The position numbers were made by a program, and so were the translations under genes. This document shows, in pieces, positions 7,159 to 56,647 of a stretch of DNA of 64,000 nucleotides. The notes below the pieces were generated by a model. The model did not search any database. It saw only the letters and a list, made by a program, of their open reading frames with translations, and was not told the origin of the DNA. Location of the stretch: assembly GCF_002854065.1 (NCBI RefSeq), contig NZ_CP024151.1. One strand, 5' to 3'. The DNA is from Escherichia coli (GTDB lineage Bacteria > Pseudomonadota > Gammaproteobacteria > Enterobacterales > Enterobacteriaceae). Positions within the stretch are counted from its first letter, which is position 1. Each line of letters starts with the position of its first letter.

Positions 7159-7273
7159 AAATTTTCCTTGCACATCCATTTTTTTGCGAATATTATTATT
7201 CCTGCTGAATATGATTCAATATCGCACGCTACTCATCCATCCCAGGATAATGAGTACATAGGTTGAAGTTTCA

Positions 7274-7301
7274 ACACCCCCATTACGGGGGTGTTTTTTT
7301 T
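7274..7301 (+). terminator. Rho-independent terminator
   Basis: 8-bp GC-rich stem ACACCCCC / GGGGGTGT with a 5-nt loop, followed by a T7 tract. Confidence 0.7.
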
Positions 7302-21200: not shown

Positions 21201-22482
21201 CTCTTCTGCAACCGACAAACTGGTAATTAAAGGCGATGCGTCCGGTAAGACCCGAGTGGCTGTTACGAATGTTGGTGGTTCAGGCGCTAATACGCTGAAT
21301 AGTATTGAAGTTATTCATGTTGATGGTAATGCAGCTAACGCTGAATTTATTCAGGCCGGACGTATAGCGGCCGGCGCTTATGACTACACTCTTGGACGTG
21401 GGCCGGGAAGCAACTATGGAAACTGGTATCTGAGCAGTAGTAAAAACACTCCAGAACCAAGGCCTGATCCTGAACCTACTCCGGAAGGGCATGATAACAA
21501 CCTGCGCCCGGAAGCCAGCTCCTATACCGCGAATATAGCTGCGGCAAACACCATGTTTGTGACCCGCCTTCATGAACGTCTGGGGCAGACGCAATACGTC
21601 GATGCAATTACCGGAGAACCGAAAGCAACCAGTATGTGGATGCGCCATGAAGGAGGACATAACCGCTGGCGCGACGGTTCTGGTCAACTGAAAACTCAAA
21701 GTAATCGTTATGTGATTCAACTGGGTGGTGATATCGCACAATGGGATTGGGGTGGAACTAACCGCTGGCATCTGGGGGTTATGGCTGGTTACGGTAACAA
21801 CCATAGCAGTACAGGTGCAGTACGCACCGGATACCATTCAAAAGGCAGCGTAAATGGTTACAGTACCGGGCTGTATGCTACCTGGTATGCTGATGATGAG
21901 ACTCATAACGGAGCTTATCTGGATACCTGGGCTCAGTACGGCTGGTTCGATAACCATGTGAAAGGTGACGGACTGCCGGGTGAATCCTGGAAATCAAAAG
22001 GACTTACCGCCTCACTGGAAACAGGTTATGCCTGGAAAATCGGGGAATTCAGCAGCAACTATGGCAATCTGAACGAATGGTATGTTCAGCCTCAGGCCCA
22101 GCTTGTCTGGATGGGGGTTAAAGCTGATGAACTCTATGAAAGTAACGGTACTCTTATTGAAAGCACCGGAGACGGTAATGTCCATACCCGTCTGGGCGTG
22201 AAAACCTGGATTAAAAGGCTCAATAAAATGGATGATGGTAAATCACGTGAGTTCAGCCCATTTGTGGAGGTGAACTGGTTGCATAATACCCGTGATTTTG
22301 GGGTTCGTATGAACGGCGAACCGGTGTATCAGGATGGTACCCGTAATATCGGAGAGGTCAAAACTGGTGTGGAAGGTCAAATAAATCCCCATCTGAACCT
22401 GTGGGGGAATGTGAGAGTTCAAGTTGGTGATAAAGGGTATAACGACACCTCAGCCATGCTGGGTGTGAAGTATACATTCTGA
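18295..22482 (+). CDS. Type Va autotransporter, adhesin-like (AIDA/pertactin-type beta-helical passenger, C-terminal beta-barrel)
   Basis: 1395-aa ORF; repetitive G/N/T-rich passenger, proline-rich linker PEPRPDPEPTPE, C-terminal barrel ending in the aromatic motif GVKYTF; no serine-protease GDSGS motif, so not SPATE-like; low-GC, AT-rich upstream region. Confidence 0.8.
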   Translation: MSHKFYYVISFLLSLASSPSIGDEMNCQRYFCFVNGIVEIRTAPEEYQNKPVLVGSQSDGLLIIDNHADIEDGIFSTLHIGNGYNGAVDVINGAALHMDNRSGSAPLIVGAFGNDIAGKLNISGRNSIVSYRDTPSSSGHNESIYVGFGPGATGWINIFNGGVFEVLNSTNIYVGSDTPGGGDGSIVIDGSNSKMTADFSEAYVGLYGNGDISLKNGGQLSASNLYIGGNGRAIVNISGTDSRLIANMITISGSSGAPGIYIADQGILNVDNYINITTANDTKGKLFINSDMPGTIESKGILFGVGKAELIFKHNSDNYAFSSPLISKNTGNGIINAESGETHLTGDNTDYSGLLNILPTASIDISSQKNIGKSVIVNNGVLQITSQDDWTFNNNMTGNGYLNVHTGGHNFAFQNSTNTQEFTGTLALSDTLFDLSDDNTTALTSALVLAGVGSVITAGTGTQVINGFSFDGGAVNFGAVTQGAQQTESQIQVTDNLYINGNGAVRVSTPTDVNGIPQVINSSLSLLEQDDSNATIKLVDASSAVVKGNGGNLQLQDASGQVISSGKQRNIVQLGKNVAKGVYDYRLTSGPHNDGLYIGYALTQLDLLASGVDALVLDAAGTTGNAADMSARITGAGDLAFNSQKGETVSLSNQDNDYTGVTAIRGGNVLMNSNSVLGQTSEIRLATDTRLDMNGHSQTVGKLNGAAGSVLNINGGNLTLTDDGVSAGTLTGGGFLNISGGVLDITGGNHTFAVSTIIAKDATVRMNDVSGLGTGNISNAGTLSLTHASGLLSNNLSGSGTVSLINSDTQISGNNSNYSGLFVVDTSSQLTATGAQNLGIASVSNRGILQLNNTTDWQLINNVTGTGNVRKTGSGSLTVRSNAAWSGQTDIDDGSLILGQSDAPVMLASSLVNIAKNGKLTGFGGVVGNVTNSGSLDLRSAAPGNILTIGGNYTGNNGTLLINTVLDDSSSATDKLVIKGDASGKTRVAVTNVGGSGANTLNSIEVIHVDGNAANAEFIQAGRIAAGAYDYTLGRGPGSNYGNWYLSSSKNTPEPRPDPEPTPEGHDNNLRPEASSYTANIAAANTMFVTRLHERLGQTQYVDAITGEPKATSMWMRHEGGHNRWRDGSGQLKTQSNRYVIQLGGDIAQWDWGGTNRWHLGVMAGYGNNHSSTGAVRTGYHSKGSVNGYSTGLYATWYADDETHNGAYLDTWAQYGWFDNHVKGDGLPGESWKSKGLTASLETGYAWKIGEFSSNYGNLNEWYVQPQAQLVWMGVKADELYESNGTLIESTGDGNVHTRLGVKTWIKRLNKMDDGKSREFSPFVEVNWLHNTRDFGVRMNGEPVYQDGTRNIGEVKTGVEGQINPHLNLWGNVRVQVGDKGYNDTSAMLGVKYTF

Positions 22483-32709: not shown

Positions 32710-34407
32710 TCATTTCACGTTAGTTAAAGATTTTTTTATATTCTCAAATTTGGCTTGGTTGATATCACTGATCGGTTTTTGACTTGACGTGATGAAGTCA
32801 ATCATAACAGCCTTCATATTCTTAACCACATCAGGATGGGATGCAGAGAGATCTTTAGTTTGTTGCAGATCGTTGATATCGTACAGAGCTAGTTTATTCT
32901 CTGCATAGGTGTAAACCAGAGAATAATCGTTGCTTCTTACAGTGTATGCAAACTGGCTTAAGTCTTCTGTATGTGGGTTGTGCGGATAATCATCAGACTC
33001 TTTTCTCACGAATTTATGATATCCGTTCCAGAATGCAGTGTTCTCTTCGTCCCACCAGTGAGAATAAGAGGTAATCCAGGACAGATATTTGTGAGGTTCG
33101 CCAGCTGCAGATTTCTTATCAGCTCCTTTCTGTACATATGGCAATAATGATACACCATCTAGTTTCAGAGAAGCAGGGATCTTGATATCTGCGGCATCTA
33201 AAGCGGTCGGATAGAAGTCCATTGATGAAACCAGTTTGTCATAATCACCCGTTTTCAGCTTGCCATTCCACCACATGAACATAGGTGTATGCATACCACC
33301 CGGATACGGTTGGCCTTTGTAACCAGCCTGCGCACCATTCAGTGGCAGTGGACCATCAATTACAGCACCGTTATCAGAGGTGAACAGAATGATGGTGTTG
33401 TCGTACTGACCTTTTTCCTTAAGTGTATTCAGGATCTTTTTAACCCCCTGGTCAACGGAGTAAATTGACGCATAATAGTTATCAGCAGTCTTGCTACCAG
33501 TGTTGAATTTCTCCTGATAGTTTTTAGGCGCAGGCTGATCGTTAGGCAGGTGTGGTGCACTGTATGCCAGATAAATCATAAATGGCTGTTCCAGTTTGCT
33601 TGCACGGTCAATTACACCAATTGCTTCATCAGTTAATTGATCACTAATGTACCCTTCAGCTTTAATGTTTTCACGGTTACGGAACAATGACGGGGAGTTA
33701 TAAAGTGAAACGCCGGATGCGTGATAGCCCATGAAGTAGTTGAAGCCACGATTCTGAGGTTGCCATTCTTCTGCGGAGAAGGTGGTGAAGTTATCGTGGT
33801 AGTCACGGGTTTGTTTTTCTTCAGGCACACCTACGTTGCTGATTTTTGATAAGTGCCACTTACCGATTGCTGCAGTGTAATAACCATGATTCTGAAGTAA
33901 TTCAGACAGGAATGTTTCTTCCAGAGGGATACCATCCTGTGCATCAGAATTTGAATATACACCGAAGCGAGCAGGAGCTCGCGCCGTCAGGATTGCGGCA
34001 CGTGAAGGGCCAGAGACACCGTGTGCAACATAGCCGTTAGTGAATTTTACACCTTCGTCCATCAGGGCCGCTAATGTTGGAGTGGATTTTTTTGCAGCTT
34101 CAATTGCTTTATCAATACCTATTTTGTATGTATCAACAACATTTCGGTTATCCATCGTTTTAGGGTCAAATGAACTATCATCAAAAGGCAATTGTCCATA
34201 CCCTAAATCATCCATTGTTAAAACAATGATATTTGGCTTACCTTTAGTGCTGTATTCCGTCGGCGTGAAGTCCGCAAAGGCAACATTGGTTTTTGTTGCT
34301 TTGAGCTTAACATCATCTGCTGCATTTGCAGTACTCATCATCAGACCAGATGCTAATATAAGTGATATTGATGAGTTAAGCAGTTTTTTATTTAACTGAT
34401 GTTCCAT
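32710..34407 (-). CDS. Periplasmic sulfatase (alkaline-phosphatase superfamily), Ser-type
   Basis: Signal peptide; metal-binding N-terminal block IIVLTMDDLGYGQ; formylglycine-site motif S-G-P-S-R-AAILTAR with Ser rather than Cys; about 565 aa. Confidence 0.75.
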   Translation of the reverse strand: MEHQLNKKLLNSSISLILASGLMMSTANAADDVKLKATKTNVAFADFTPTEYSTKGKPNIIVLTMDDLGYGQLPFDDSSFDPKTMDNRNVVDTYKIGIDKAIEAAKKSTPTLAALMDEGVKFTNGYVAHGVSGPSRAAILTARAPARFGVYSNSDAQDGIPLEETFLSELLQNHGYYTAAIGKWHLSKISNVGVPEEKQTRDYHDNFTTFSAEEWQPQNRGFNYFMGYHASGVSLYNSPSLFRNRENIKAEGYISDQLTDEAIGVIDRASKLEQPFMIYLAYSAPHLPNDQPAPKNYQEKFNTGSKTADNYYASIYSVDQGVKKILNTLKEKGQYDNTIILFTSDNGAVIDGPLPLNGAQAGYKGQPYPGGMHTPMFMWWNGKLKTGDYDKLVSSMDFYPTALDAADIKIPASLKLDGVSLLPYVQKGADKKSAAGEPHKYLSWITSYSHWWDEENTAFWNGYHKFVRKESDDYPHNPHTEDLSQFAYTVRSNDYSLVYTYAENKLALYDINDLQQTKDLSASHPDVVKNMKAVMIDFITSSQKPISDINQAKFENIKKSLTNVK

Positions 34408-34502: not shown

Positions 34503-35639
34503 TTAAAACTGATACATCATACCAACAGCAAGTATATTATCGGTTGCAACTCCAGCCTTTTTGGTAAATTCGCTTTCATCAATAAGGTTAATTTTGTAAT
34601 CAATAAGAAGTGACATGTTTTTGTTCAGAAAGTAGTTTGCGCCAACATCAATATACTCAACAAGAGACTGATCGCCATAGTTTACTATTCCACCTTTAAC
34701 ATCCATCCCTTTGGACTGAACGTAAGCCAGTGAAGGACGCAGGCCGAAATCAAACATATACTGAGCCACAACTTCAATATTCCGTGCTTTATCTGCGATG
34801 CCTGCGCTACCAAATGGAGTCATATTTCGGGTTTCAGAGTAGTCAGCTGCCAGATACAGGTCATTATCATTATACTTGACCCCAACACCTGCAAACTCCG
34901 CATGTTTTCCCCCGGCAATCCAGCGAGGCGTAATAACTTCTTTTCCTTCTGAATCTTTCGATGTCATGAAACGTTTACGGCCTTCTTTTTCCTGCAGACT
35001 GGTTCTGTCGGCATTAGTGTAAGCGGCAACGATTCCAAAACCTTCATAGTCATAGCTTACGGAGAAACCATATCCATCACCATTAGCTTCAAGTAAATTA
35101 TCACGGTCATTTTTACCCTGATATTGAGCAGAAAAAGTAAGTCCATCAACAAGCCCGAAGAAATCTGTATTGCGCCAGGTCAGAACTCCGGTTGTTCTGC
35201 CGGTCATATAGTTATCAGAGTAAGTCCAGCTGTCACCACCAAAGTCCGGAAGTACGTCAGTCAGAGCCCCCACATCATAGGCAACACCATAGTTTCGCCC
35301 ATAATCAAGTGAACCGAGTATATTGTGGCGAATACCTGCAAATGCCAGACGATTTTTATCGTTGCGTACTTCACTTTCTGTCTTAAACCCCAGGAACTGG
35401 TATTCCCACTGACCAAAGCCAGTCAGGCTCTCATTAATTTGTGTTTCGCCTTTGAAACCAAGACGTGCAAATGTTCTGTCGCCATCCATAGAACCATCAG
35501 AGATGTAATGACGGGCTTTAACGCGACCATAAAAATCCAGTTTATTACCGTCTTTATTATAGATTTCTGCTGCCTGTGTTGCCTCACACAGCATTAATGC
35601 AGAAACGACAGAGCACACAACCACACTTAATTTTCGCAT
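34503..35639 (-). CDS. Outer-membrane general porin (OmpC/OmpF/PhoE family)
   Basis: Signal peptide then AEIYNKDGNKLDFYGRVKARHY..., and the C-terminal ...AVGMMYQF aromatic terminus typical of 16-strand porins; start set at MRKLSVVV inside the track ORF. Confidence 0.8.
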   Translation of the reverse strand: MRKLSVVVCSVVSALMLCEATQAAEIYNKDGNKLDFYGRVKARHYISDGSMDGDRTFARLGFKGETQINESLTGFGQWEYQFLGFKTESEVRNDKNRLAFAGIRHNILGSLDYGRNYGVAYDVGALTDVLPDFGGDSWTYSDNYMTGRTTGVLTWRNTDFFGLVDGLTFSAQYQGKNDRDNLLEANGDGYGFSVSYDYEGFGIVAAYTNADRTSLQEKEGRKRFMTSKDSEGKEVITPRWIAGGKHAEFAGVGVKYNDNDLYLAADYSETRNMTPFGSAGIADKARNIEVVAQYMFDFGLRPSLAYVQSKGMDVKGGIVNYGDQSLVEYIDVGANYFLNKNMSLLIDYKINLIDESEFTKKAGVATDNILAVGMMYQF

Positions 35640-36147
35640 AAAAAAATCCCCTGTGCACATTTTTAGTATGGTTTTAAAAATTAAACTATGGCGAAAAAAT
35701 TATCACCATGCAAATATGTAACAAAATATTTCTCGGTGATCTATGTTGTTGTTTTTATTTGAGGTTGTATATTTTCTAGTGTATTTGACTTTTCTTTCTT
35801 AAGTGTTATTTCTCGACCTTTATCACAGAACCATCTCCCTGGATATCCCCATAACATTGCATGAAAAGCAAGTTTTACCAATCTTGATTTTCAGTGTTAA
35901 ATAAGATTAATAACTGTAATTCTGCAAAAAAAAGAACACCATATGTAGTATGACTACGTATTCCACTCTGTTCGTTCACGGACTGGCATCGAAGTCTGAG
36001 GTGTACTGGCAATAGCGGATACAGTCATTTGTTCTTTTTTTAAGCATTCATCCGATGATACTTTTCCTGAATGCTACCGGAGTGGTATTCCCCTGCCGTG
36101 ATAGACTGGCCCCCTGAATCTCCAGACAACCAATATCACTTAAATAA

Positions 36148-36558
36148 GTGATAGTCTTAATACTAGTTTTTAGACTAGTCATTGGAGAGCAGATGATTGA
36201 TGTCTTAGGACCGGAGAAACGCAGACGGCGTACTACACAGGAAAAGATCGCTATTGTTCAGCAGAGTTTTGAACCGGGAATGACGGTCTCCCTTGTAGCC
36301 CGGCAACACGGTGTGGCAGCCAGCCAGCTATTTCTCTGGCGCAAGCAATACCAGGAGGGAAGTCTTACTGCTGTGGCCGCAGGAGAACAGGTCGTTCCTG
36401 CCTCTGAACTTGCTGCTGCCATGAAGCAGATTAAAGAACTCCAGCGCCTGCTCGGCAAAAAAACGATGGAAAATGAACTCCTTAAAGAAGCCGTTGAATA
36501 TGGGCGTGCAAAAAAGTGGATAGCGCACGCGCCCTTATTGCCCGGGGATGGGGAGTAA
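36148..36558 (+). CDS. insC: IS2 OrfA (InsC)
   Basis: Same 136-aa protein as at 17452-17862. Confidence 0.9.
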
Positions 36559-37421
36559 GCTTAGTCAGCCGTTGTCTCCGGGTGTCGCGTGCGCAGTTGC
36601 ACGTCATTCTCAGACGAACCGATGACTGGAAAGATGGTCGCCGCAGCCGTCACTCAGATGATATGGATGTACTTCTCCGTATACACCATGTTATCGGAGA
36701 GCTGCCCACGTATGGTTATCGTCGGGTATGGGCGCTGCTTCGCAGACAGGCCGAACTTGATGGTATGCCTGCGATCAATGCCAAACGTGTTTACCGGATC
36801 ATGTGCCAGAATGCGCTGTTGCTTGAGCGAAAAACCGCTGTACCGCCATCGAAGCGGGCACATACTGGCAAAGTGGCCGTGAAAGAAAGCAATCAACGAT
36901 GGTGCTCTGACGGGTTCGAGTTCCGCTGTGATAACGGAGAAAAACTGCGAGTCACGTTCGCGCTGGACTGCTGTGACCGTGAGGCACTGTACTGGGCGGT
37001 CACTACGGGCGGCTTCGACAGTGAAACAGTACAGGACGTCATGCTGGGAGCGGTTGAACGCCGCTTCGGCAACGAGCTTCCGGCGTCTCCAGTAGAGTGG
37101 CTGACGGATAATGGTTCATGCTACCGGGCTAATGAAACACGGCAGTTTGCCCGGATGTTGGGGCTTGAACCGAAGAACACGGCGGTGCGGAGTCCGGAGA
37201 GTAACGGCATAGCAGAGAGCTTCGTGAAAACGATAAAGCGTGACTACATCAGTGTCATGCCTAAACCAGACGGGTTAACGGCAGCAAAGAACCTTGCAGA
37301 GGCGTTCGAGCATTATAACGAATGGCATCCGCATAGTGCACTGGGTTATCGCTCGCCACGGGAATATCTACGGCAGCAGGCCAGTAATGGGTTAAGTGAT
37401 AACAGGTGTCTGGAAATATAG
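36516..37421 (+). CDS. insD: IS2 OrfB (InsD)
   Basis: 301-aa DDE transposase ORF overlapping orfA in the -1 frame. Confidence 0.9.
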
Positions 37422-38980: not shown

Positions 38981-39264
38981 CAGCGAGGCACCGGTAACGG
39001 ATTGTCAGTACCGAGGCTGTCCGCCCAGGCCTGTACAGCCTGATGGTCGATAACCTGTCCGGATGTCACATCGTCCAGGGCTTCCAGCGTCAGGCGATTA
39101 CGCTCCTCCTCCTGGGCAAGCCATGCAGAAAGCGCCTGTTTGATAATCCAGCCCCGGGACCGTTCCAGTCTGGCGGCCATCTGGTCGACTTTATCAGCCA
39201 TAGGTAATGGCACATGCGCAGTAATTACTTTTGTTACTTGTGCGGTATTGTTTTTCATTTGCAT
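38980..39264 (-). CDS. RelB/ParD-type antitoxin
   Basis: 94-aa ORF located directly upstream of and overlapping the toxin gene start. Confidence 0.65.
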   Translation of the reverse strand: MQMKNNTAQVTKVITAHVPLPMADKVDQMAARLERSRGWIIKQALSAWLAQEEERNRLTLEALDDVTSGQVIDHQAVQAWADSLGTDNPLPVPR

Positions 39265-39839: not shown

Positions 39840-40174
39840 AATAGGTTTTCTTTTTAAATGAATGTAGTTAAGTAGTTTAAAGGAGATATAAACAGGTGTT
39901 TAAAAGATACATTGCACCCTGTAAGGCTGGCGGATGGCGCTTTATGACATGAACGGTTGTAACCTTATGGGGAAGTCCCTTGCAGTTAAATGTGGATAAG
40001 CAAAATTCCTCGTCTGTGAGGCGTGTTTTGTATCAAAAACAGGAGGGACCGGATGCACCTGAAGGTGGATGATGAGGTTGTTTTTTGTATGCGGTGCTGT
40101 TTTTTTGTTCGCCGACAGGCTTCAGGCGTGCAGATGCCTCCGGTGCGGGCCGGATTATTCAGAGGAGGTCACTT
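39840..40174 (-). promoter_or_regulatory. RepFIIA origin region downstream of repA1 (approximate), with a DnaA box at 39991-39999
   Basis: Position immediately 3' of repA1 as in R1/R100-type replicons; TGTGGATAA (reverse complement of TTATCCACA) at 39991-39999; GC-rich hairpin-prone sequence at 39640-39800 further downstream. Confidence 0.45.
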
Positions 40175-41032
40175 TCAGGGGGAAGCTGTGGCCAGCCGGC
40201 TGTAATTACGGTTACGTGACAGAATCATGCGCTCTTTCACACGACGCTCCACTTCGCGTTTTACCGCCTCACGATTGGCAGTGAAGCGCCCTTCCGAGAT
40301 TTCACGCGTCAGCTGCCGTTTCACCAGGGTGACGATATCCTGACGTTCCCTGTTCGCATCACGACGCGCACGGGCACGCTTTATTCCACGGGACTTAAGC
40401 TCTGTCTGGTAACTGCGGAAACGCTCACGCACAAAACGCCAGGCTTTCGCTATCAGTTCATCCATACCCAGGGTATCCAGTCCCTGCTTTTTGCGCTGTC
40501 TGTTTTCCCATTCAACACGACTGCGGCGCGCAGCAACTACTGCATCCTCAGACACATCAAGGGCGGCAAATAGCGCCGGTGTGAACGTGATATCGGTCGG
40601 AATGTAGCACCCGATAAGCGGATCATATTCCGTCTGGTAGGTAATCAGTCCCAGCTCTGCAAGGAACGTCAAGGCTCGGGTGGCCCGGGTGATGGAGAGT
40701 TTTCCGGCAGCAGACTCCGTCGCCAGTCCGCACTCAATGGCCAGCGTAGTGATGGAGCACTGGACGCGGTTGGCCAGCGGGTCATAGTGAAAACACAGCC
40801 CCTGCAGCAGCGCATCAATAGCCCGGCGACGCAGTACCGGTGGCATGCGCCGACGCAGTCCCTTCGAACGGGCATGTGCCACATGAATGGCGAAATCAAA
40901 ACGGGAGGTGAAGCCCACCGCCTTTTCCATCAGTTTTTCGCAGAACTTCAGCGTTCCGGCACCTTCACGGGGTGTGAACACCGGATTCGGGTTTTTAACC
41001 TGTGAATAGTATTTTTGAAGGAGATCAGCCAT
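40175..41032 (-). CDS. repA1: RepFIIA replication initiator RepA1
   Basis: 285-aa protein [111 protein letters not shown]...; the track ORF begins 13 codons upstream at an alternative start. Confidence 0.9.
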
Positions 41033-41318
41033 GTCCCCCTCCAACACTATTCCCCCTCCTACGGGCGGCAACTAGCTCGTCTGGGCCGACACGTAAAGTT
41101 TCGAACATATCTGGTCTGAACCAGATGGTTCCTCCATCAAAAGCGATGAGATGAAGATCATTATCAAGAGTTTTGAGGGCTCTCCAAACACGAGTGTATG
41201 AACCTCCACTACAAACTGAAAGCTCTTTAACAGATAAGTTAACTTTGTTCGTATCAGGGATGTAGTGTGCGCACATTACTTGTACGAGGGAAACATAAAA
41301 ACTAACCATCGACGCGCT
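41033..41318 (-). CDS. Hypothetical winged-helix-like small protein encoded inside the repA1 leader insertion; stop overlaps the repA1 start
   Basis: [94 protein letters not shown]; its stop codon lies at 41025-41027 inside the ATGGCTGA junction with repA1, so the coding sequence extends to 41025 and the 41033 lower bound marks the insert edge; the true start within the 41025-41519 track ORF is uncertain. Confidence 0.35.
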
Positions 41319-41499
41319 GATTTTATTTTTACGTTTGCCATGCGCTATTGCAAGAAAACCTCTGATGAAGATCAGATGCTTGAAGGAGTCAAAATGAGCC
41401 CTTTTCTGGAGAAGGCAGCAAAACGGGTGAGGATACTTGCTGGAATCAATGTGAAGATCTGATTCAATCCCACCCGCTATTACTGAATGTGTTTCATGA

Positions 41500-41574
41500 T
41501 TAGCCACACCATCCTGCACTTACAATGCACAGAAGGAGTGAGCACAGAAAGAAGTCTTGAACTTTTCCGGGCAT
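41500..41574 (-). CDS. tap: Tap-like leader peptide of the repA mRNA (24 aa)
   Basis: Reverse-complement ORF ATGCCCGGAAAAGTTCAAGAC... encodes [24 protein letters not shown] then stop; matches the size and position expected for the IncFII leader peptide, but here it ends about 467 bp upstream of repA1. Confidence 0.55.
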
Positions 41575-41615
41575 ATAACTATACTCCCCGCATAGCTGAA
41601 TTGTTGGCTATGCGG
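41520..41615 (+). ncRNA. copA: Candidate CopA-like antisense RNA overlapping the tap start
   Basis: Plus-strand stem-loop CCGCATAGC-TGAATTGTTG-GCTATGCGG followed by TTTT at about 41584-41614, antisense to the repA leader and the tap initiation region; boundaries approximate. Confidence 0.35.
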
Positions 41616-41805
41616 TTTTATGGGGCCCCGGTAATCTTTCTAGTCGCCAAACTTGAAGAAGATTATCGGGGTTTTCGCTTTTCTGGCTCCTGTAAATCCA
41701 CATCAGAACCAGTTCCCTGCCACCTTACGGCGTGGCCAGCCACAAAATTCCTTAAACGATCAGCAATCTACCACTCACTCCTGAGATAAGCAAGAATGTG
41801 AATAT

Positions 41806-42063
41806 TTACGAAGTCGCTCTGCGTTTCAACTCTGATTCAATCAGTTTTTCAAGCATCTGCGCCTGAGTAATACCTTCCTCATCCGCAAGTTCACTCAGCC
41901 TGTCTTTTAACCGGGCCTGAATAACCGCATGAAAAGCCTTATGAGTGTTGCTTCTGCGAGCCAGAGAAGCTCTTTGCCTCTCTCTGGCCGGAACAGGGTT
42001 ACCTTTCCGGTATGTACGCTTGGTGCCTGATGAGGAAGTCACTGCATTTTCTGTCTGCGACAT
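41806..42063 (-). CDS. repA2: RepA2 / CopB transcriptional repressor of the repA promoter
   Basis: 85-aa [85 protein letters not shown]... Confidence 0.85.
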
Positions 42064-42322: not shown

Positions 42323-42529
42323 GGACTTCCGTGCTTCGTAGGCCAGAGTTACCTGCACCACTGTATTTCCTCTGTGAATATTCAGCTCACATAACCGTTC
42401 CCTGAATATCAGTGAAAAACACAACACCATGGCGCACACGGCGAGCAACCCGATAAGGGCATATTTCGTCATAAACTTTGACCTCTCTGCAAAGAAGAGG
42501 CTACAATCAGTAGTGTTAAGGTACTTCAT
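42323..42529 (-). CDS. srnB: Hok/SrnB-family type I toxin, with overlapping mok-like leader frame
   Basis: MKYLNTTDCSLFFAERSKFMTKYALIGLLAVCAMVLCFSLIFRERLCELNIHRGNTVVQVTLAYEARK embedded in a longer track ORF (42179-42634); the ORF lacks a stop after the conserved ...AYEARK terminus. Confidence 0.7.
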
Positions 42530-43505
42530 GCAGACCTCACGAGTTAATGGATTAACGAGTGGGGTCTTCGCATTTCTGGTACCTGCGTCTTGCCTGAACC
42601 AGAAAGGCTCAGACACCCGCCGCGATAATACCACATTCCCTGTTGCTGGCTATTACCCCCATTTGCCTGTTTTTGTTACAAAAACGCCGGGAGCGGGGGA
42701 AAACTTACTTTTTCCCGTTTCCGGGGGGGACAACTGAGCATTGCGAACGCGTCAGCTACGATGTTCCGGTGATTGCTGATCAGCCCCTGTTGTATTCATA
42801 AACTAATTAACATTCATTCCGTCTGGTGCATAAATCTGCCCGTGAACATCTGCAGACAATACCGACCATAAAAAAATAAATAATCCCAGTAGAATATATT
42901 TCCTCATATTATTATCCATAACAAATAAATGGCACCTGTACACCTGTATTTCAGGCAATCCTGAATATTGCAGCGCACATTGAATAAGACGTTATTTCGT
43001 GACATTAATCACAAAATATAAAATCGCGACTTAATACGGAAAAAACTCTGTGCTACTCAGAACTGACTGGTCATACTGCCCGACCGGATATTAAAAAAGC
43101 AAATCTCATAAACTCCTTTCAGCCTTCTGACTCCTGGAGTAATGAAGGCTGCTTTTTCGTTACACCCTTCCCCGGCAGCGCCGGTAGCAGTGTTCAGCCC
43201 TTTTTCGGGCAAACTGCTGCCAGTCTGTCCGGGGCGCAACACAGGCAGCCCGTCGCCATCCTTCTGCCGCTTCCATCCAGCGTCCACTGACCTCCAGAAT
43301 AACGGCCCGGCTTCCGGCACGCTGCCAGCGCCAGACCTGACCGTTCCGTGAACTGTTTCTGAATCCATTCATCTTTATCACTCCTCTTTAACCCGTCAGT
43401 ATTATGGTGTTAAATAATCTACTGAATTGGCTTCCTTTCGGGTACGGAAGTTTATTTCCTTTTAAGCCTTATTTCCCTGCCTCCTCTCTCTGATGGAGGC
43501 TTTTT

Positions 43506-44886: not shown

Positions 44887-47800
44887 TCAGTCTCCGCCCA
44901 GGGTTTTCTCTTTCTGCAGGGCACGAACCATATCCCGCTCCATCTGCTGCAGTCGCTCCTGCAGCAGATTTTCCCGGGCAACATCCCGGACCGCTTCCCG
45001 CACCCGTTGTGATTCACGCAGCACACTCTCCGGCAGCGCGGCTTCCCGTTCAGATATGGCAGACCGGTCACGCTCCTGCCCGGCAATCTCCCTGACAGCC
45101 TGCTCTGTTTTGCCATCCGGCAGGTCAGGTTTGTTCTCTGCCATTTTACGGACAATTTCATCCGCACGGCGTTCCGTTTCACGGCGGATGGCCTCTTCAG
45201 CTTGCCGCTGTGCCAGTACCTCTGCCGTGACCGGTTCGCCATTTCCGGCTCCCGGCTGAACGCTGTTGTCCGGGATATCCCCCCACACGCGACCACCGGT
45301 GATGGTACCGGGATTCCACGGACGACCTTCACCGGCGATTCTTACCACCACACCGCTGTCAGGATTATCACGGGCAATCCGGACACCATCCTGCATATTA
45401 TCAGCCAGCAGGCTCTCTCCGTTACGGCTGCCCTGCAGGGCCACGAACTGCGCATCCCCGCTGCCTTTCACCCGGCCTTCACCACTGAAGCCCCGCAGCC
45501 CGTTTCCGTCATCCGTGGTCAGCGGATTCAGCCAGATACCGGCGGACTTGCCGTTACGGTCAAAAGCCGGCAGTGCCACATACGGCTGCGGATATTTGCG
45601 CCCGGGTGCAATAAACCGTGCAGGATTGTCTCCCCCGGCAAGTCCCGCCTGACGGAGAACGGCACGGCCGGCCGCCACGTCCCGCAGCTCCCGCGCCGTA
45701 CTGAACAGCCGCTCTGCATTCATGACCTCCCGGTCCGATTTCGGCTCAAGCACATCGTGGGCAGTTCCTTTCTGTACGGCATTGTTAATGGCATCCGTCC
45801 AGCCCTGACGGTTATCGGTATACACCTGCACATGCTGCTTCATACGCGACAGGGCCACGTAGGCTGACTCAAAGCCGGCCATCTGTTTCCGGCTGCCTTC
45901 CGTACCTTCAAGCGCGATGGCAAAGGTTTCACTTGCCCCCTGCGCACCGTGGGCGGTGATGGCATAGGCCAGGTCAATATGTTGCTCTGCCCGCTCCTGA
46001 CCGGGGCGAATCACCCGGGTCTGCTGTCCGTCCGACAGCGTGACACTGTCACCGGAAACCGCTGTCACCGTCCAGACGCTGTTGGCCACATAACCGCGCT
46101 CCCGGTCACTCTTCGTGAAGCGCATCCGGTCACCGGTTCCCACCCGGATGGTGTCCGGGGTGTACAGTGTGACGCCTTCAGCCACCGCCTCCCGGGGCGA
46201 AATCAGCCGCGTGTTACCTTCAGCATCCTGCAGGGTTATCAGCCCGTCATCCCTGCTGATACCGGCAATCCGGTGATACACATTATCCACCAGGGCAAGT
46301 GCGTCCCGATGTGTCTCCCAGGTGGAGAGACGACGCAGCTCCCCGTCGCGTATATTCGCTGTGTTCAGGACAGGCACCATGACCTGCTCTTTTCCCAGCT
46401 CACCGGCCTTTTCCCGTGCATCATGAATCATGCTGTTCAGCACGCGCCGGTCCTCATTCAGGTGCGTGACAATCAGCGTCTGCTCCCGTGCTTCCGGTGT
46501 TCTGCCGGTATAGTCGCGGACAATGGCTTCATACAGTGTCATGGGGACATCCGGGAAAGCCTCGCCTTTCAGCATCGCCTTCTGCTGCGCTTCTGCCAGT
46601 TTCGCTTCCTGGCTGTGACTGAACTCCATCACGGAGTGCTCCGGTGCCCATGCGCCCTCCAGACGTGGCACCTGAGACGGTTTCACACTCTCAAGCCCGG
46701 ATAGTGCCCTTTCCACATCCCGGTTAATCAGGTTGTATACCGCCTCCCGCAGTTCCGGCGTCTGACGCACAATCTCCTTCATGATGGCCACATCGGCAGC
46801 ACTGCGCGTCTGCTGGAGACGGAAAGGCTGACCGGGCGCGATGGCCTGCAGCTGGTCCGTGTCACCACTGGCCACGGCACGACCGCCACCGGCCGCAATC
46901 AGGGCGTATGCCCGTGCCATGTCGGTATTGCCCACCATTGAGCTCTCATCGAGCAGGAACAGCGTGTTGCTGAAATCCGGCGTTTCTCCGCTGCGCTGCT
47001 GCAGCTGCGTGTCATGCAGAAAAGACGCCAATGTCTGCGCATCCACGCCGGCGCTGCGCATCTCCCCGACCGCACGGTGTGTGGGACCCAGCCCAACGAC
47101 ACGGGGACGCTCACTCTCCGGCAGCATGTTCACGGCTGACATCACCGCCCGGAACTGTGTGGTCTTACCCACACCGGCATAGCCCTGCACCACCGTGAAG
47201 CGGTCGGACGTTTCCAGTATCATGCGGGTGGCGGCGCGCTGTCCTGATGTCAGTTTCTCCATGAGTTCGCCAGGTACTCTCTCCATCAGCGGCGTGACCG
47301 CCTCCTTACCTTCGAGAATATGGCGAAGAATGCTCTTTTCTGCCTCATACGACGCACGGGAAACCAGCAGGCCTGTGCCATAGTCTTTTGCCACATCCAC
47401 ATACAGTAAATCACCCCGTTTTATCTGCGCATCGATTTCCCCTCCCAGTTCAGTAAAACTGGTTCCTTCTGCAGCAAACGACTTCGCCTCTGTCAGCAGG
47501 TCCACCATGCTGAAGGCCAGGTTTTTACTTTCCAGCACAGGAAGGGCCAGATGAATGGCCTGCTGTGCCGGCGTGTGAAGCCCGGCTTTCTGCAGACTGA
47601 TAGCGGTTTCCAGCAATGTCTCACCGGCACGCGCCTTTATCTGCTCAGAAACCACCGTAAAGGAGGGATGGCGGGCAAGTTTTTCCGCAGTACGGGTTTC
47701 ATCCAGTGAGGAATACAGCCGGACATCACGACCGCTGCGGGCCAGACCGTTCAGGGTGGCGTTGTCCATTGCCATCTGTGTGACGGAGGCAAAAACCTTC

Positions 47801-53825: not shown

Positions 53826-56647
53826 AATGGCCCCTTCAATCGTTCTTTCTTATCATCCACCATCTGTTTTAACGCATCTTCAGACGGTGTTGGCATTAAT
53901 TTCTGTCGTTTATTTTCTTCATTATATCTGTTGTTTTGTTGAATTTCTTCCTGTTTGTGATTATTTTTTAACTCTGAATATTGTCTGTCTACAATATTTT
54001 CTTCGCCATGAATACTATTCTGAGTATCTCCGATATTCCCTTTATATTCTGTGACCATATTATCAACCTGATGTTTTACATCATTACGGATATTACTGTC
54101 CTGCGTTCTTTGATCAATAATGGCCTGATGCCCCTGATGGTCAGCAATAATATCCTGGCTGCCACCACCCGAAGGTACGCTCTCCATTCCTTTACCAATA
54201 TCCCCACGGGATTCACGCCAGGCATTATCAACACCAGGCTGCACCTGTTCCTGAACAAAAGACCATGCCATCGCCCGACGGCGTTCTGCAATCTCCGGTG
54301 AACTGGTGTTTGTCAGAATAGCTTCGGCATCCTGCGGTGCGTGTTTCATCACATACTGTGCAAACTGTTGCGACAAATCTTCGCTCATCTGCCCACTCAT
54401 GCTTTCAGTACGGGATGCCATTTCAGCATATTCATGGCTGCGGGTCATATTCGTCGTGTACTGGTCGTAACTCTGTTTCGCTGAGTTCAGGGCTGCAGAC
54501 AACTGGTCCACGCGGGAATCGGCATTATTGTCAGTATGGCTGCCGGATTCACTGACTTTGCGACTGGTAAAGTAATCGCTGGCCTCTTTAAAGTCCTTAC
54601 TGGCTTTAGCATCGATATCATGGCGAGCATCATGGGTAGCCCTGCTGCCACTACTTGCTGAATGTGAGTCATCATCCGTTGCATCCAGGCTCCCCTTAAA
54701 TCCACCTCTGATGCCTACCCCACCACCAACACCAAGAATTTTAGGTTTAACCCCCCATTCAGCATGAGCATCAGCATACATTCCACCAGATAGCCTGGTA
54801 CTTGTTGATGCCAGTTCCTGAGTCGCCTGCTCATTACTGATATTATGCGCCTTCGCATAGCTTTCCACTGCACTGCGCATACGGCTGGCCATCATGGAGT
54901 CCTGAGCACTCATCGTGCTGTCAGCACCACCGGTGACAGAATCACTGCTCCCCCGGTTAGAACCAAACTGACTGAGCGTGTTCCAGGCACTGGCAATACT
55001 GCTGCTGAACCCATGCAGGGCACTTTCTGCTCTGTTCGATGCTTCCCGGGCCATTTCCTGTTGTGCCGCCGCAATCTGACGCGTTGCATTGATGCCGACC
55101 GGTAACCGGGACATCGCTCCGCTTGCATCCATCACCATATTACCGTCACGGGTCTGTGTGGCGGTTGCGCCACTGCCGGTCTGGTACATCATCTGACCAA
55201 ACGACGTGGTGCTGTTGGTGCTCCAGCTGAAGCCGTTAACATTCTCCGTCTGCATGTTGCCGTAGGAGTAATTACCGTCAACCACACTGCCTGCTGCACT
55301 GGCGGTCGGGCTGATAGCAGAGGAAGCGAAATGGCTGTACACACTGGAAAATCCTGCCCCGAGCCCCCTGACCATCATCCAGGATAATGGCGGGATCATC
55401 ATGGAAAGATACCCGGCAGTGGAAGCCAGATCGGAGTATTTCAGCTGTATCTGTGAAATTTCCGAGAGCACCACCGGTGCACCATTCTGCTTTGCATAAA
55501 ATGTCATGGCGCTGTTCAGAATGGCGTACAACATTGGCCATGACTGCAACCACATCAGGGCAAACACATAGCCTTTCAGGACGGACAGCGTCAGTTTGTT
55601 GAAGACAGCCGCCAGTACCAGGAGCGGGAAAATACCGATGGCGATCCCCGTCAGGATGGTCTGCGTCATGGGCAGTGTCCGCATCGCCACATGACCGATG
55701 GAGACATGTGCCAGACGTTGCTTCTCCATCGATGATGTGGTGGCCAGATTCACCAGGCTGGCCGAATCACCATTACGTGCGGCATAACTGGTGATCCCCT
55801 CCTTCAGCGCATTGATGGTGACATTCTGGCGGATGATCTGGCTGGCTGATTTACTTGAGCCATAGAAGTAACTGTAACTGTCGCCAATCAGCGTACTGAA
55901 CAACAGGTTCGGATCAGGGCGTCCACCAAATAGCTGCTGGGCATAATAATGCCATGTTTTTCCGCCACTCTGTGTGTCCAGATTCAGCTTGTCTTTCAGC
56001 GAAACCGACGCGTCCTTACAGGTCACGAAATTATTATTGCTGTCATAAACGCCCCGCAGCGGACTGGGGCGGGAAAAAATCAGCGTGTAAGGATCAGCGG
56101 AGGCCATCAGTTCCTCCAGCGTGTATTTGTGGTTCAGGTAAATATCCCCCATCACGCAGTTCTGCACATAATCCTGGAAAAGATTGGCGATTTCCGGATT
56201 ACGGGACAAAAAGTCGGTGCTTTTTGATACCAGTTCTGCGCCAAACAGCATCCCCGTTTTGCTGTAGGTGACACTGTCCGGTTGCGTGAAGATCATCTCG
56301 TAACTGGCCACCATTGCATGCCCGATACGGGTCGTCAGTGAAAGTGGCATCGCCAGTCCGACCGGCACATTATCCACCCGGTGAACTTTGACCAGGTCAC
56401 TGTTATCAATAATCTGCACCGATGTGCGGACATTAACCAGCAGGCTGATAAGCACAAACACGGCCACCCAGCCCAGCAAATCCATCACGTTGTGCCGCTG
56501 TACCCACATTACGGCCACCGCGAGAACAGACAATGTGAGCGCAATTTTTTCAATGGAATCCCACGTCCGGGTCCCCATAAAGGCGGCAATGGCATTCAGG
56601 TTATTCCGCAACCACTCACCACCGGCAATCACATAAACTTCATTCAC
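53822..56647 (-). CDS. traG: TraG mating-pair stabilisation / pilus assembly protein
   Basis: 941-aa ORF with N-terminal membrane domain; position between traH and traS. Confidence 0.9.
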   Translation of the reverse strand: MNEVYVIAGGEWLRNNLNAIAAFMGTRTWDSIEKIALTLSVLAVAVMWVQRHNVMDLLGWVAVFVLISLLVNVRTSVQIIDNSDLVKVHRVDNVPVGLAMPLSLTTRIGHAMVASYEMIFTQPDSVTYSKTGMLFGAELVSKSTDFLSRNPEIANLFQDYVQNCVMGDIYLNHKYTLEELMASADPYTLIFSRPSPLRGVYDSNNNFVTCKDASVSLKDKLNLDTQSGGKTWHYYAQQLFGGRPDPNLLFSTLIGDSYSYFYGSSKSASQIIRQNVTINALKEGITSYAARNGDSASLVNLATTSSMEKQRLAHVSIGHVAMRTLPMTQTILTGIAIGIFPLLVLAAVFNKLTLSVLKGYVFALMWLQSWPMLYAILNSAMTFYAKQNGAPVVLSEISQIQLKYSDLASTAGYLSMMIPPLSWMMVRGLGAGFSSVYSHFASSAISPTASAAGSVVDGNYSYGNMQTENVNGFSWSTNSTTSFGQMMYQTGSGATATQTRDGNMVMDASGAMSRLPVGINATRQIAAAQQEMAREASNRAESALHGFSSSIASAWNTLSQFGSNRGSSDSVTGGADSTMSAQDSMMASRMRSAVESYAKAHNISNEQATQELASTSTRLSGGMYADAHAEWGVKPKILGVGGGVGIRGGFKGSLDATDDDSHSASSGSRATHDARHDIDAKASKDFKEASDYFTSRKVSESGSHTDNNADSRVDQLSAALNSAKQSYDQYTTNMTRSHEYAEMASRTESMSGQMSEDLSQQFAQYVMKHAPQDAEAILTNTSSPEIAERRRAMAWSFVQEQVQPGVDNAWRESRGDIGKGMESVPSGGGSQDIIADHQGHQAIIDQRTQDSNIRNDVKHQVDNMVTEYKGNIGDTQNSIHGEENIVDRQYSELKNNHKQEEIQQNNRYNEENKRQKLMPTPSEDALKQMVDDKKERLKGPL

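Follow-up and report, generated by a model that had tools for sequence, protein, structure and literature searches.

A truncated RepA paralogue between tap and repA1 in the RepFIC-type replicon of Escherichia coli plasmids, and its possible place in a translational relay

A middle cistron between tap and repA1

The window (a stretch of 64,000 nt of Escherichia coli DNA, contig NZ_CP024151.1 of assembly GCF_002854065.1, whose positions are the coordinates used throughout) contains a plasmid replicon of the IncFII family in which the genes of copy-number control and the gene of the initiator are separated by an additional cistron, here called RepA-N (Table 1). The repressor gene repA2/copB, which the Prokaryotic Genome Annotation Pipeline (PGAP) labels 'replication regulatory protein RepA' in identical plasmids and whose homologues in relatives match PF10723, is accompanied by a PrepA-like promoter, at a position that we take to correspond to PrepA of R1 and R100; there follow the gene of the antisense RNA CopA, which according to Rfam is antisense to the leader of the rep messenger RNA (mRNA), the leader peptide gene tap, RepA-N, and finally repA1, whose product is a full-length initiator of the IncFII family, 95% identical to RepA1 of R100. 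The DnaA box found downstream of repA1 is the same that has been described for IncFII replicons (PMC2762410).

In the preliminary description of this DNA some 470 bp of extra sequence had been noticed between a tap-like open reading frame (ORF) of 24 aa and a repA1 gene starting at 41032, together with an ORF ending in ...VGGGHG whose TGA stop overlaps that start, and all of these elements are indeed present. On alignment with R100 (locus L009, which carries annotated repA2, tap and repA), the leader is near-identical up to GGATGGTGTG, after which come 475 extra nucleotides and then an R100-like repA1; the edges of this confirmed extra segment are ambiguous by a few nucleotides, because RTGGCTRATC is present on both sides of it. 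The GTG of RepA-N, at 41507, occupies the exact position of the repA start in R100 and overlaps the TAA stop of tap (GTGGCTAA), that is to say, tap is coupled to the 160-aa RepA-N gene and not directly to repA, the start of repA1 lying 475 nt further on; at the other end, the TGA of RepA-N overlaps the ATG of repA1 (ATGGCTGA, 41032-41025).

Table 1. Features of the replication control region of the window, most of them on the minus strand
Feature	Position	Strand	Basis or remark
repA2/copB, 85 aa	41806..42063	-	ORF; transcriptional repressor gene of the replicon
PrepA-like sigma-70 promoter, TTGAAA-17-AATATT	41801..41829	-	Consensus match only
CopA antisense RNA gene	41592..41680	+	Rfam RF00042, 93.6 bits against a gathering score of 60
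PcopA-like promoter	41557..41585	+	Consensus scan, in which the CopA stem-loop was also found
tap leader peptide, 24 aa	41500..41574	-	ORF; PGAP 'RepA leader peptide Tap' in identical plasmids; nearly identical to R100
Predicted tap-internal hairpin, pairing the AGGA Shine-Dalgarno sequence of the next cistron	~41506..41541	-	Predicted fold, with R100 as control; sequence common to R100
475-nt stretch, extra relative to R100	41027..41501	-	GC 44%, against 56% in repA1
Middle cistron RepA-N, 160 aa, GTG start at 41507	41025..41507	-	RepA homology
Region coding for the predicted winged helix-turn-helix, residues ~90-131	41115..41240	-	AlphaFold2 model, Foldseek, invariant columns
Predicted junction hairpin over the Shine-Dalgarno sequence and ATG of repA1	41004..41052	-	Folding prediction
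repA1, 285 aa, ATG at 41032	40175..41032	-	TIGR03474, 582 bits against a cutoff of 446.9
DnaA box, TTATCCACA	39991..39999	-	Start of the oriR region downstream of repA1; read from the sequence

The arrangement had been taken for an insertion, and an atypical one, into a RepFIIA replicon. The extra DNA is real, but it is no one-off, being part of the normal organisation of a lineage of replicons which is widespread and to which the F plasmid belongs; and the RepFIIA label has to be changed, since identical plasmids are typed IncFIC by MOB-suite, which means F-type RepFIC and not RepFIIA proper. The 475-nt insert is found in 517 of the 72,556 plasmids of PLSDB and in 525 of 5,426 complete E. coli genomes (~10%), a recurrence that places the arrangement far beyond chance, and its carriers include pAPEC-O1-ColBM, pAPEC-1, pVir68 and pVM01. 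The paper on pAPEC-1 only mentions an extra ORF that pAPEC-1 has in common with pAPEC-O1-ColBM (PMC2626276), and no functional description of the RepA-N ORF was met with in the literature searched, although older RepFIC papers may mention it. Diverged relatives, with 66-82% amino acid identity, occur in Salmonella salamae, Citrobacter freundii, Klebsiella pneumoniae and metagenomes (7 loci), and in them an intact ORF of ~159 aa stands between tap and a 285-aa repA, with overlaps of 8 nt at both ends. One variant (L013, 2501-3100) has 199 aa and a 4-nt overlap; its 40-aa N-terminal extension (AEQNKSQAKWDGVPSDEQIRLPNLADSEQNVF...) resembles by eye the N-terminus of a subfamily of 339-aa RepA proteins (QHWSQLDTEEQLRFWQGVDDG...), which hints at further mosaicism.

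Origin, predicted fold and selective constraint of RepA-N

On sequence comparison, RepA-N is a truncated and diverged paralogue of the N-terminal part of RepA (residues ~22-172), and not an initiator. In BLASTP it is 34% identical to the adjacent RepA1 over 98 aa (E=3e-9), and in the profile-profile alignments of hhalign its residues 21-153 are colinear with residues 22-172 of RepA (97.5% probability, E=6.3e-12); against the NCBIfam model incFII_RepA it reaches 17.8 bits, below the cutoff of 446.9, with no full-length RepA match. In identical plasmids it bears the PGAP label 'hypothetical protein', being too diverged for the curated models. A deep, library-wide search with hidden Markov models recovered only a tight RepA-N family (at least 65% identity) and a number of distant short proteins of 176-241 aa, and no full-length RepA nearer to RepA-N than the resident one. 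In other words, the upstream ORF that had been described as a different one is separate and long, as stated, but it is itself a shortened relative of RepA which begins at the canonical repA start codon. Its origin would have been a duplication or a recombination that placed a 5′ copy of repA upstream of a complete repA-ori module. A more specific footprint of tandem duplication, in which the C-terminal tail of RepA-N and the junction would be a diverged copy of the 3′ end of tap and of the first junction, was considered and rejected (z=1.4; upstream-only p=0.45); as the two regions show no significant similarity in nucleotides, only the paralogy at the protein level stands.

The AlphaFold2 model of RepA-N has a predicted local distance difference test score (pLDDT) of 80, rising above 90 in the winged helix-turn-helix part, and a predicted template modelling score (pTM) of 0.72. 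It consists of a helical bundle and then, at residues 93-130, of a predicted helix-turn-helix with a beta-hairpin wing (helices 93-100 and 104-117, strands 121-123 and 128-130); a winged-helix-like segment in the ORF had already been seen in the preliminary description. The best Protein Data Bank (PDB) matches of this model in Foldseek are all winged-helix regulators (MarR/SlyA/RovA, CRP, IclR), superimposed over ~70 residues at 2.3-3 Å, with probabilities of 0.9-1.0 but with E values of at least 0.07, which are not significant. The putative recognition helix, SYTRVWRAL, shares the pattern S-x-T-R-x-x-R-A-L with SITRATRAL of RepA, and both this helix and the hydrophobic core are nearly invariant within the RepA-N family; a search of PDB sequences with a RepA profile gave no match.

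RepA-N is under purifying selection. In eight lineages of the window type, compared pairwise and with the counts summed over all pairs, the ORF is free of stops and frameshifts and its indels are in frame only. The pairwise ratio of nonsynonymous to synonymous substitution rates (dN/dS) is 0.20-0.48 for RepA-N, as against 0.04-0.26 for RepA, and the summed ratio is 0.33 overall and 0.23 in the core (residues 57-150), with Fisher tests giving p from 1e-2 down to 6e-10; the variability by codon position is 0.35/0.30/0.57, the third position being the highest. The ratios and the codon-position signature together argue that it is the protein product of RepA-N that matters, and not merely an open frame. 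The preliminary description had allowed that other replicons might show the same spacing with no conservation of the ORF, or that a conventional tap might lie directly upstream of repA1; however, the ORF is conserved, and selected, and there is no such tap at that place.

Several observations weigh against the interpretation that will be proposed below, in which RepA-N is a functional protein. A Pfam scan of the ORF and of its family gave no significant family, the structural matches lack significance, as has been said, and constraint is weak over the N-terminal ~55 residues (dN/dS 0.48 for residues 2-56). Natural variants with a frameshifted or interrupted ORF exist, although they are few: of P0002, P0003, P0004 and P0016, one has an in-frame deletion of 9 aa (151 aa) and two are interrupted or frameshifted, and one variant of 163 aa (36 member sequences) undergoes a late frameshift into the repA1 frame and then diverges; their occurrence suggests that some multi-replicon plasmids tolerate the loss of the ORF or of the replicon. 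Finally, the synonymous divergence (dS) of the ORF is low, 0.33 vs ~1.2 in repA, that is, 3-4 times lower, and this is unexplained.

The same peculiarity is seen at the level of the DNA, where, in the eight window-type replicons, no other segment is as conserved as the ORF (mean identity 0.86; leader 0.77, repA 0.73-0.75, copB and the ori side 0.59-0.61). Its distances correlate with those of repA (r=0.66-0.69) and not with those of the leader (r=0.07), and its GC content at third codon positions is fixed at 0.39-0.41. The low dS could come from an ascertainment bias, given that the loci were found via the ORF, from the recombinational spread of a cassette, or from a constraint at the nucleotide level; no conserved antisense or alternative-frame ORF was found that would account for it.

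An alternative explanation would be that the ORF is what recombination left of an older repA, that its frame has stayed open just because ribosomes have to pass through it on their way to repA1, and that its protein is functionless. It agrees with the derivation of RepA-N from RepA without its C-terminal half, with the poor constraint at the N-terminus and in the tail (dN/dS 0.60 in the last ten residues) and with the absence of a Pfam family; furthermore, the conserved tail NSVGGG coincides with the Shine-Dalgarno sequence and hairpin of repA1 and is therefore explicable at the RNA level. However, an open frame alone would not predict a dN/dS of 0.23 in the core, nor a near-invariant recognition helix and hydrophobic core in a confidently folded model, and the same signature (dN/dS 0.20) is repeated in an independent family of short RepA proteins, to which we return below. 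We regard a functionless relic as unlikely.

Predicted coupling at the junctions and parallel layouts

At the first junction, that of tap with RepA-N, the predicted fold retains the tap hairpin of the R100 type. At the second, that of RepA-N with repA1, a hairpin is predicted between 41052 and 41004 (-21.3 kcal/mol, z=-4.68, with 0 of 200 shuffles as stable), in which RepA-N contributes its last ~7 codons as the 5′ arm and repA1 its codons 3-11 as the 3′ arm, while the Shine-Dalgarno sequence GGAGG of repA1 (41042-41038) and its ATG are buried within it. In all eight loci of the family the repA start is an ATG preceded by GGAGG, in contrast to the GTG and weak Shine-Dalgarno sequence of R100, and in these 8 loci the hairpin is retained, mostly via sequence conservation. 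An overlapping stop and start combined with a sequestered ribosome-binding site is the hallmark of pairs of genes coupled by termination and reinitiation, and from it we infer that the translation of repA1 would depend on that of RepA-N. The earlier suggestion that coupling is preserved is thereby favoured as far as the overlaps and the predicted sequestering hairpins go, the coupling itself being deduced from these.

On this side, too, there are points to be subtracted. The coupling and the function of the hairpins are predictions; there are no compensatory substitutions in the junction hairpin within the family (0 pairs), and in one of its loci, L012, the hairpin is weak (-12.4 kcal/mol). 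Since there is no covariation within the family, the support for the hairpin comes from analogous hairpins at unrelated junctions, which are found among the distant short proteins mentioned above.

The three of these short RepA-like proteins whose contexts were examined (L014, L015 and L016) sit directly upstream of a full-length RepA, which they overlap by 14, 8 and 1 nt, and at the three loci a tap-like peptide ends 8 nt into the gene of the short protein. Compared with the classical 285-aa RepA, the short proteins show 40-45% identity to its N-terminal ~175 residues, and the initiators downstream of them are RepA proteins of 337-339 aa of another subfamily, which match only the shared IncFII/IncL/M RepA model NF040977. 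The junction sequences of these loci are unrelated to that of the window, and nevertheless hairpins that would sequester the Shine-Dalgarno sequence and the AUG are predicted in them (-19 to -24 kcal/mol; z -3.1, -3.2 and -1.9); moreover, the point of truncation is the same in all the short forms of RepA, shortly after the AAR(R) helix.

The type of 183 aa has 468 matches in PLSDB at 60-80% identity, and the layout formed by tap, the 183-aa RepA-N and a 339-aa RepA was seen in the two records inspected, one from Klebsiella (L025, K. pneumoniae p1423_1) and another from Salmonella (L026, Salmonella Give pCFSAN024229), where the annotation reads 'RepA (x2) + tap' and where PGAP names both genes 'plasmid replication initiator RepA'. 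Together with L015, these records represent a hybrid replicon, in which a copB/tap leader of the FII type is followed by the N-terminal half of a classical RepA and then by a RepA of 337-339 aa that belongs to another subfamily; one of the carriers has been typed as IncI-gamma/K1. The 183-aa family has a dN/dS of 0.20-0.21 (p about 1e-12 to 1e-14), which denotes purifying selection, and it shows the pattern of low dS as well. The parallel layouts, the selection, the junction hairpins and the common point of truncation indicate that the succession of tap, an N-terminal half of RepA and a complete repA recurs within the IncFII family and is maintained there.

Taking all this together, we consider it probable that tap, RepA-N and repA1 constitute a translational relay that keeps the control by CopA, in which the middle cistron would encode a functional DNA-binding protein. 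By homology, CopA would target the same leader as in R1 and R100. Tap would be translated, and its stop overlaps the GTG which in R100 is the repA start and which here opens RepA-N; ribosomes would then have to read RepA-N up to its TGA in order to melt the hairpin that hides the Shine-Dalgarno sequence and ATG of repA1, and because of this obligatory passage RepA1 would stay under the control of CopA and tap in spite of the additional distance of 475 nt. The inhibition of tap by CopA would thus propagate via RepA-N to RepA1.

The opposite situation would be that RepA1 is translated independently from its own Shine-Dalgarno sequence and ATG, or from an internal promoter, and that the control by CopA has been escaped or loosened. 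It would fit with the GGAGG and ATG of repA1, in place of the weaker signals of R100, and with the AT-rich composition of the insert. But these start signals lie inside a stable and conserved predicted hairpin, the consensus scan found no promoter inside the 475-nt stretch, and CopA, its leader target CopT, tap and the overlaps are maintained in every lineage, which would be pointless without coupling; an uncontrolled RepA, it should be remembered, causes runaway replication in R1. An uncoupled repA1 is, in our opinion, improbable. A further possibility is a programmed frameshift, at the G-run or at the overlap, that would give a fusion of RepA-N and RepA1 with two winged-helix domains. A G-rich run adjoins the stop, and in the window the ATG of repA1 is preceded by 13 open codons in its frame; however, the overlaps vary among loci (8, 4, 14, 1 nt), with offsets of 1 or 2, the G-run is broken in L003, and in several loci this open stretch upstream of repA1 is no longer than 1-7 codons. 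As the frame relation between RepA-N and repA1 is not conserved, the fusion is rejected, and we give it practically no credence.

Apart from its place in the proposed relay, RepA-N would be more than a translated spacer, in view of the selection on its protein, of the predicted winged helix-turn-helix and of the RepA pattern in the putative recognition helix. The most likely activity of the protein is to bind DNA, within the replicon or close to it, and to modulate initiation, and it may be speculated that it is a diffusible negative modulator, or a competitor at sites of the RepA type. A broader and quite tentative idea, which we put forward with more reserve than confidence, is that the RepA-N proteins constitute a hitherto unrecognised class of plasmid-encoded, trans-acting winged-helix 'half-initiators', co-translated with a cis-acting initiator, that would bind sites of the RepA type and in this way set the copy number or act as a protein-based factor of incompatibility or competition against plasmids of the IncFII family, and that would have spread by recombination, as a cassette, between replicons that differ in their repA allele. 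Such a spread would account for the conservation of the ORF, which exceeds that of the other segments of the replicon.

State of the replicon, comparison with known systems and other features of the window

The insert is 99.4% identical to that of the F plasmid of E. coli K-12 NCM3722 (67.5 kb), where the replicon is intact. In classical F, represented by the F′ plasmids of JM109 (L017, NZ_CP117961.1, 2501-2766) and DHB4 (the other classical F record being NZ_CP014271.1), the match runs only as far as nucleotide 266 of the insert, the point at which Tn1000 starts, and the rest of RepFIC is absent from these records; given this position, the interruption of the RepFIC of F is in the RepA-N ORF and not in the full-length repA1. 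The RepFIC of F has classically been regarded as inactive.

It is in this context that the replicon as a whole could be considered dead, an inert scar in plasmids that replicate from RepFIB or RepFIA, with the ORF as mere junk. The break by Tn1000 in F speaks for it, as does the fact, also unfavourable to the relay that we propose, that FIB and/or FIA replicons are present besides in each of the 11 E. coli carriers for which the typing was looked at; no plasmid with this replicon alone was found among those sampled, and for this reason co-occurrence does not establish the autonomy of the layout. The window itself carries a second replicon (9841-11256), with a GTG-start ORF of 325 aa (10013-10990) that we take to be the RepFIB initiator, even if an NCBIfam search of this ORF gave no match at 1e-10; it is flanked by iteron-like direct repeats of 18-20 nt, five copies of them at 11022-11256 and one pair at 9841/10991. 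On the other hand, RepA has a dN/dS of 0.04-0.26 in the same lineages, and no damage is seen in CopA or tap, in the hairpins, in the DnaA box or in the start signals, so a dead replicon seems to us very improbable.

With regard to autonomy, a SmaI fragment of 3.09 kb is said to have defined the autonomously replicating RepFIC of P307 (reportedly in work of Saadi et al. in 1987). In the window, a distance of 3,098 bp separates the SmaI sites at 39153 and 42251, in agreement with the size of that fragment, while the canonical layout would place them at ~2.6 kb; this agreement is only suggestive, because there is an internal SmaI site at 40684. As a separate observation, SmaI sites (CCCGGG) are over-represented in the whole window, with 29 against the 14.9 expected, and 0 of 100 shuffles reach 29.

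In comparison with known systems, the replicon resembles R1 and R100 (RepFIIA) in copB/repA2, in CopA, in a near-identical CopT leader and tap, in the overlap of stop and start, in RepA1, and in the DnaA box and ori downstream. It differs from them in that tap, which there is coupled directly to repA, is here joined to it via the 160 codons of RepA-N, which in turn overlap repA1, and in that the ATG and GGAGG of repA1 lie in a predicted hairpin of their own instead of the GTG and weak Shine-Dalgarno sequence found there. To RepFIC of F and P307 it is linked by the IncFIC typing and by the insert shared with F, whole in NCM3722 and for its first 266 nt in classical F. The plasmids of the I-complex (repY-repZ of ColIb-P9, IncB, IncL/M) offer a likeness to the mechanism proposed here, as in them the ribosome-binding site of rep is hidden by a structure that opens when an ORF upstream is translated; their leader is a peptide of ~29 aa, with a pseudoknot as activator, whereas here the 'leader' would be a protein domain of 160-183 aa, predicted to be folded and under selection. 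The shorter variants of pi in R6K are partial forms of an initiator which are used as regulators and which arise from internal starts within one gene. The likeness would be that replication is modulated by part of an initiator in which a DNA-binding or dimerisation domain is retained, which for RepA-N is a hypothesis; the difference is that RepA-N is a separate and highly diverged paralogue, encoded upstream.

The circuit of CopA, tap and repA is a textbook example of copy-number control by antisense RNA, and in E. coli the IncF plasmids are important vehicles of genes for virulence and resistance. Within that circuit, about one in ten complete E. coli genomes, as well as the F factor, have an additional selected cistron that is annotated as 'hypothetical'. 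The sequence is common and its control module is classic; what appears to have gone unrecognised is its coding status, the selection on it, its role in a relay and the generality of the architecture. If the relay is true, the control by CopA can pass through a long intermediate ORF, and this would offer a way to recombine modules of control with modules of initiator and origin; likewise, replicon typing and the design of plasmid-curing strategies should take the RepA-N ORF into account. And if RepA-N is a regulator, it would add a third layer, at the protein level, to the control of copy number or incompatibility in IncF plasmids.

Other features of the window may be mentioned. Beside the replicon, an Rfam match to the antitoxin RNA sok (42460-42618, minus strand) points to a module of the hok/srnB type, and there are Rfam matches to the antisense RNAs of IncF plasmids AS-pc02 (43080-43263), AS-traI (47232-47308) and AS-traG (55843-55928), all on the plus strand. 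An IS2 transposase is found at 36516-37421. On the minus strand lie a sulfatase-like protein (32710-34407) and a plasmid-borne porin similar to OmpC/PhoE (34503-35660), and on the plus strand an autotransporter of 1,395 aa with a beta-barrel domain (18295-22482), labelled as an S6 family peptidase in matching plasmids. Lastly, the E. coli small RNA UptR is matched over its full length (Rfam RF02568, 123 bits) on this plasmid DNA at 7204-7295, on the plus strand.

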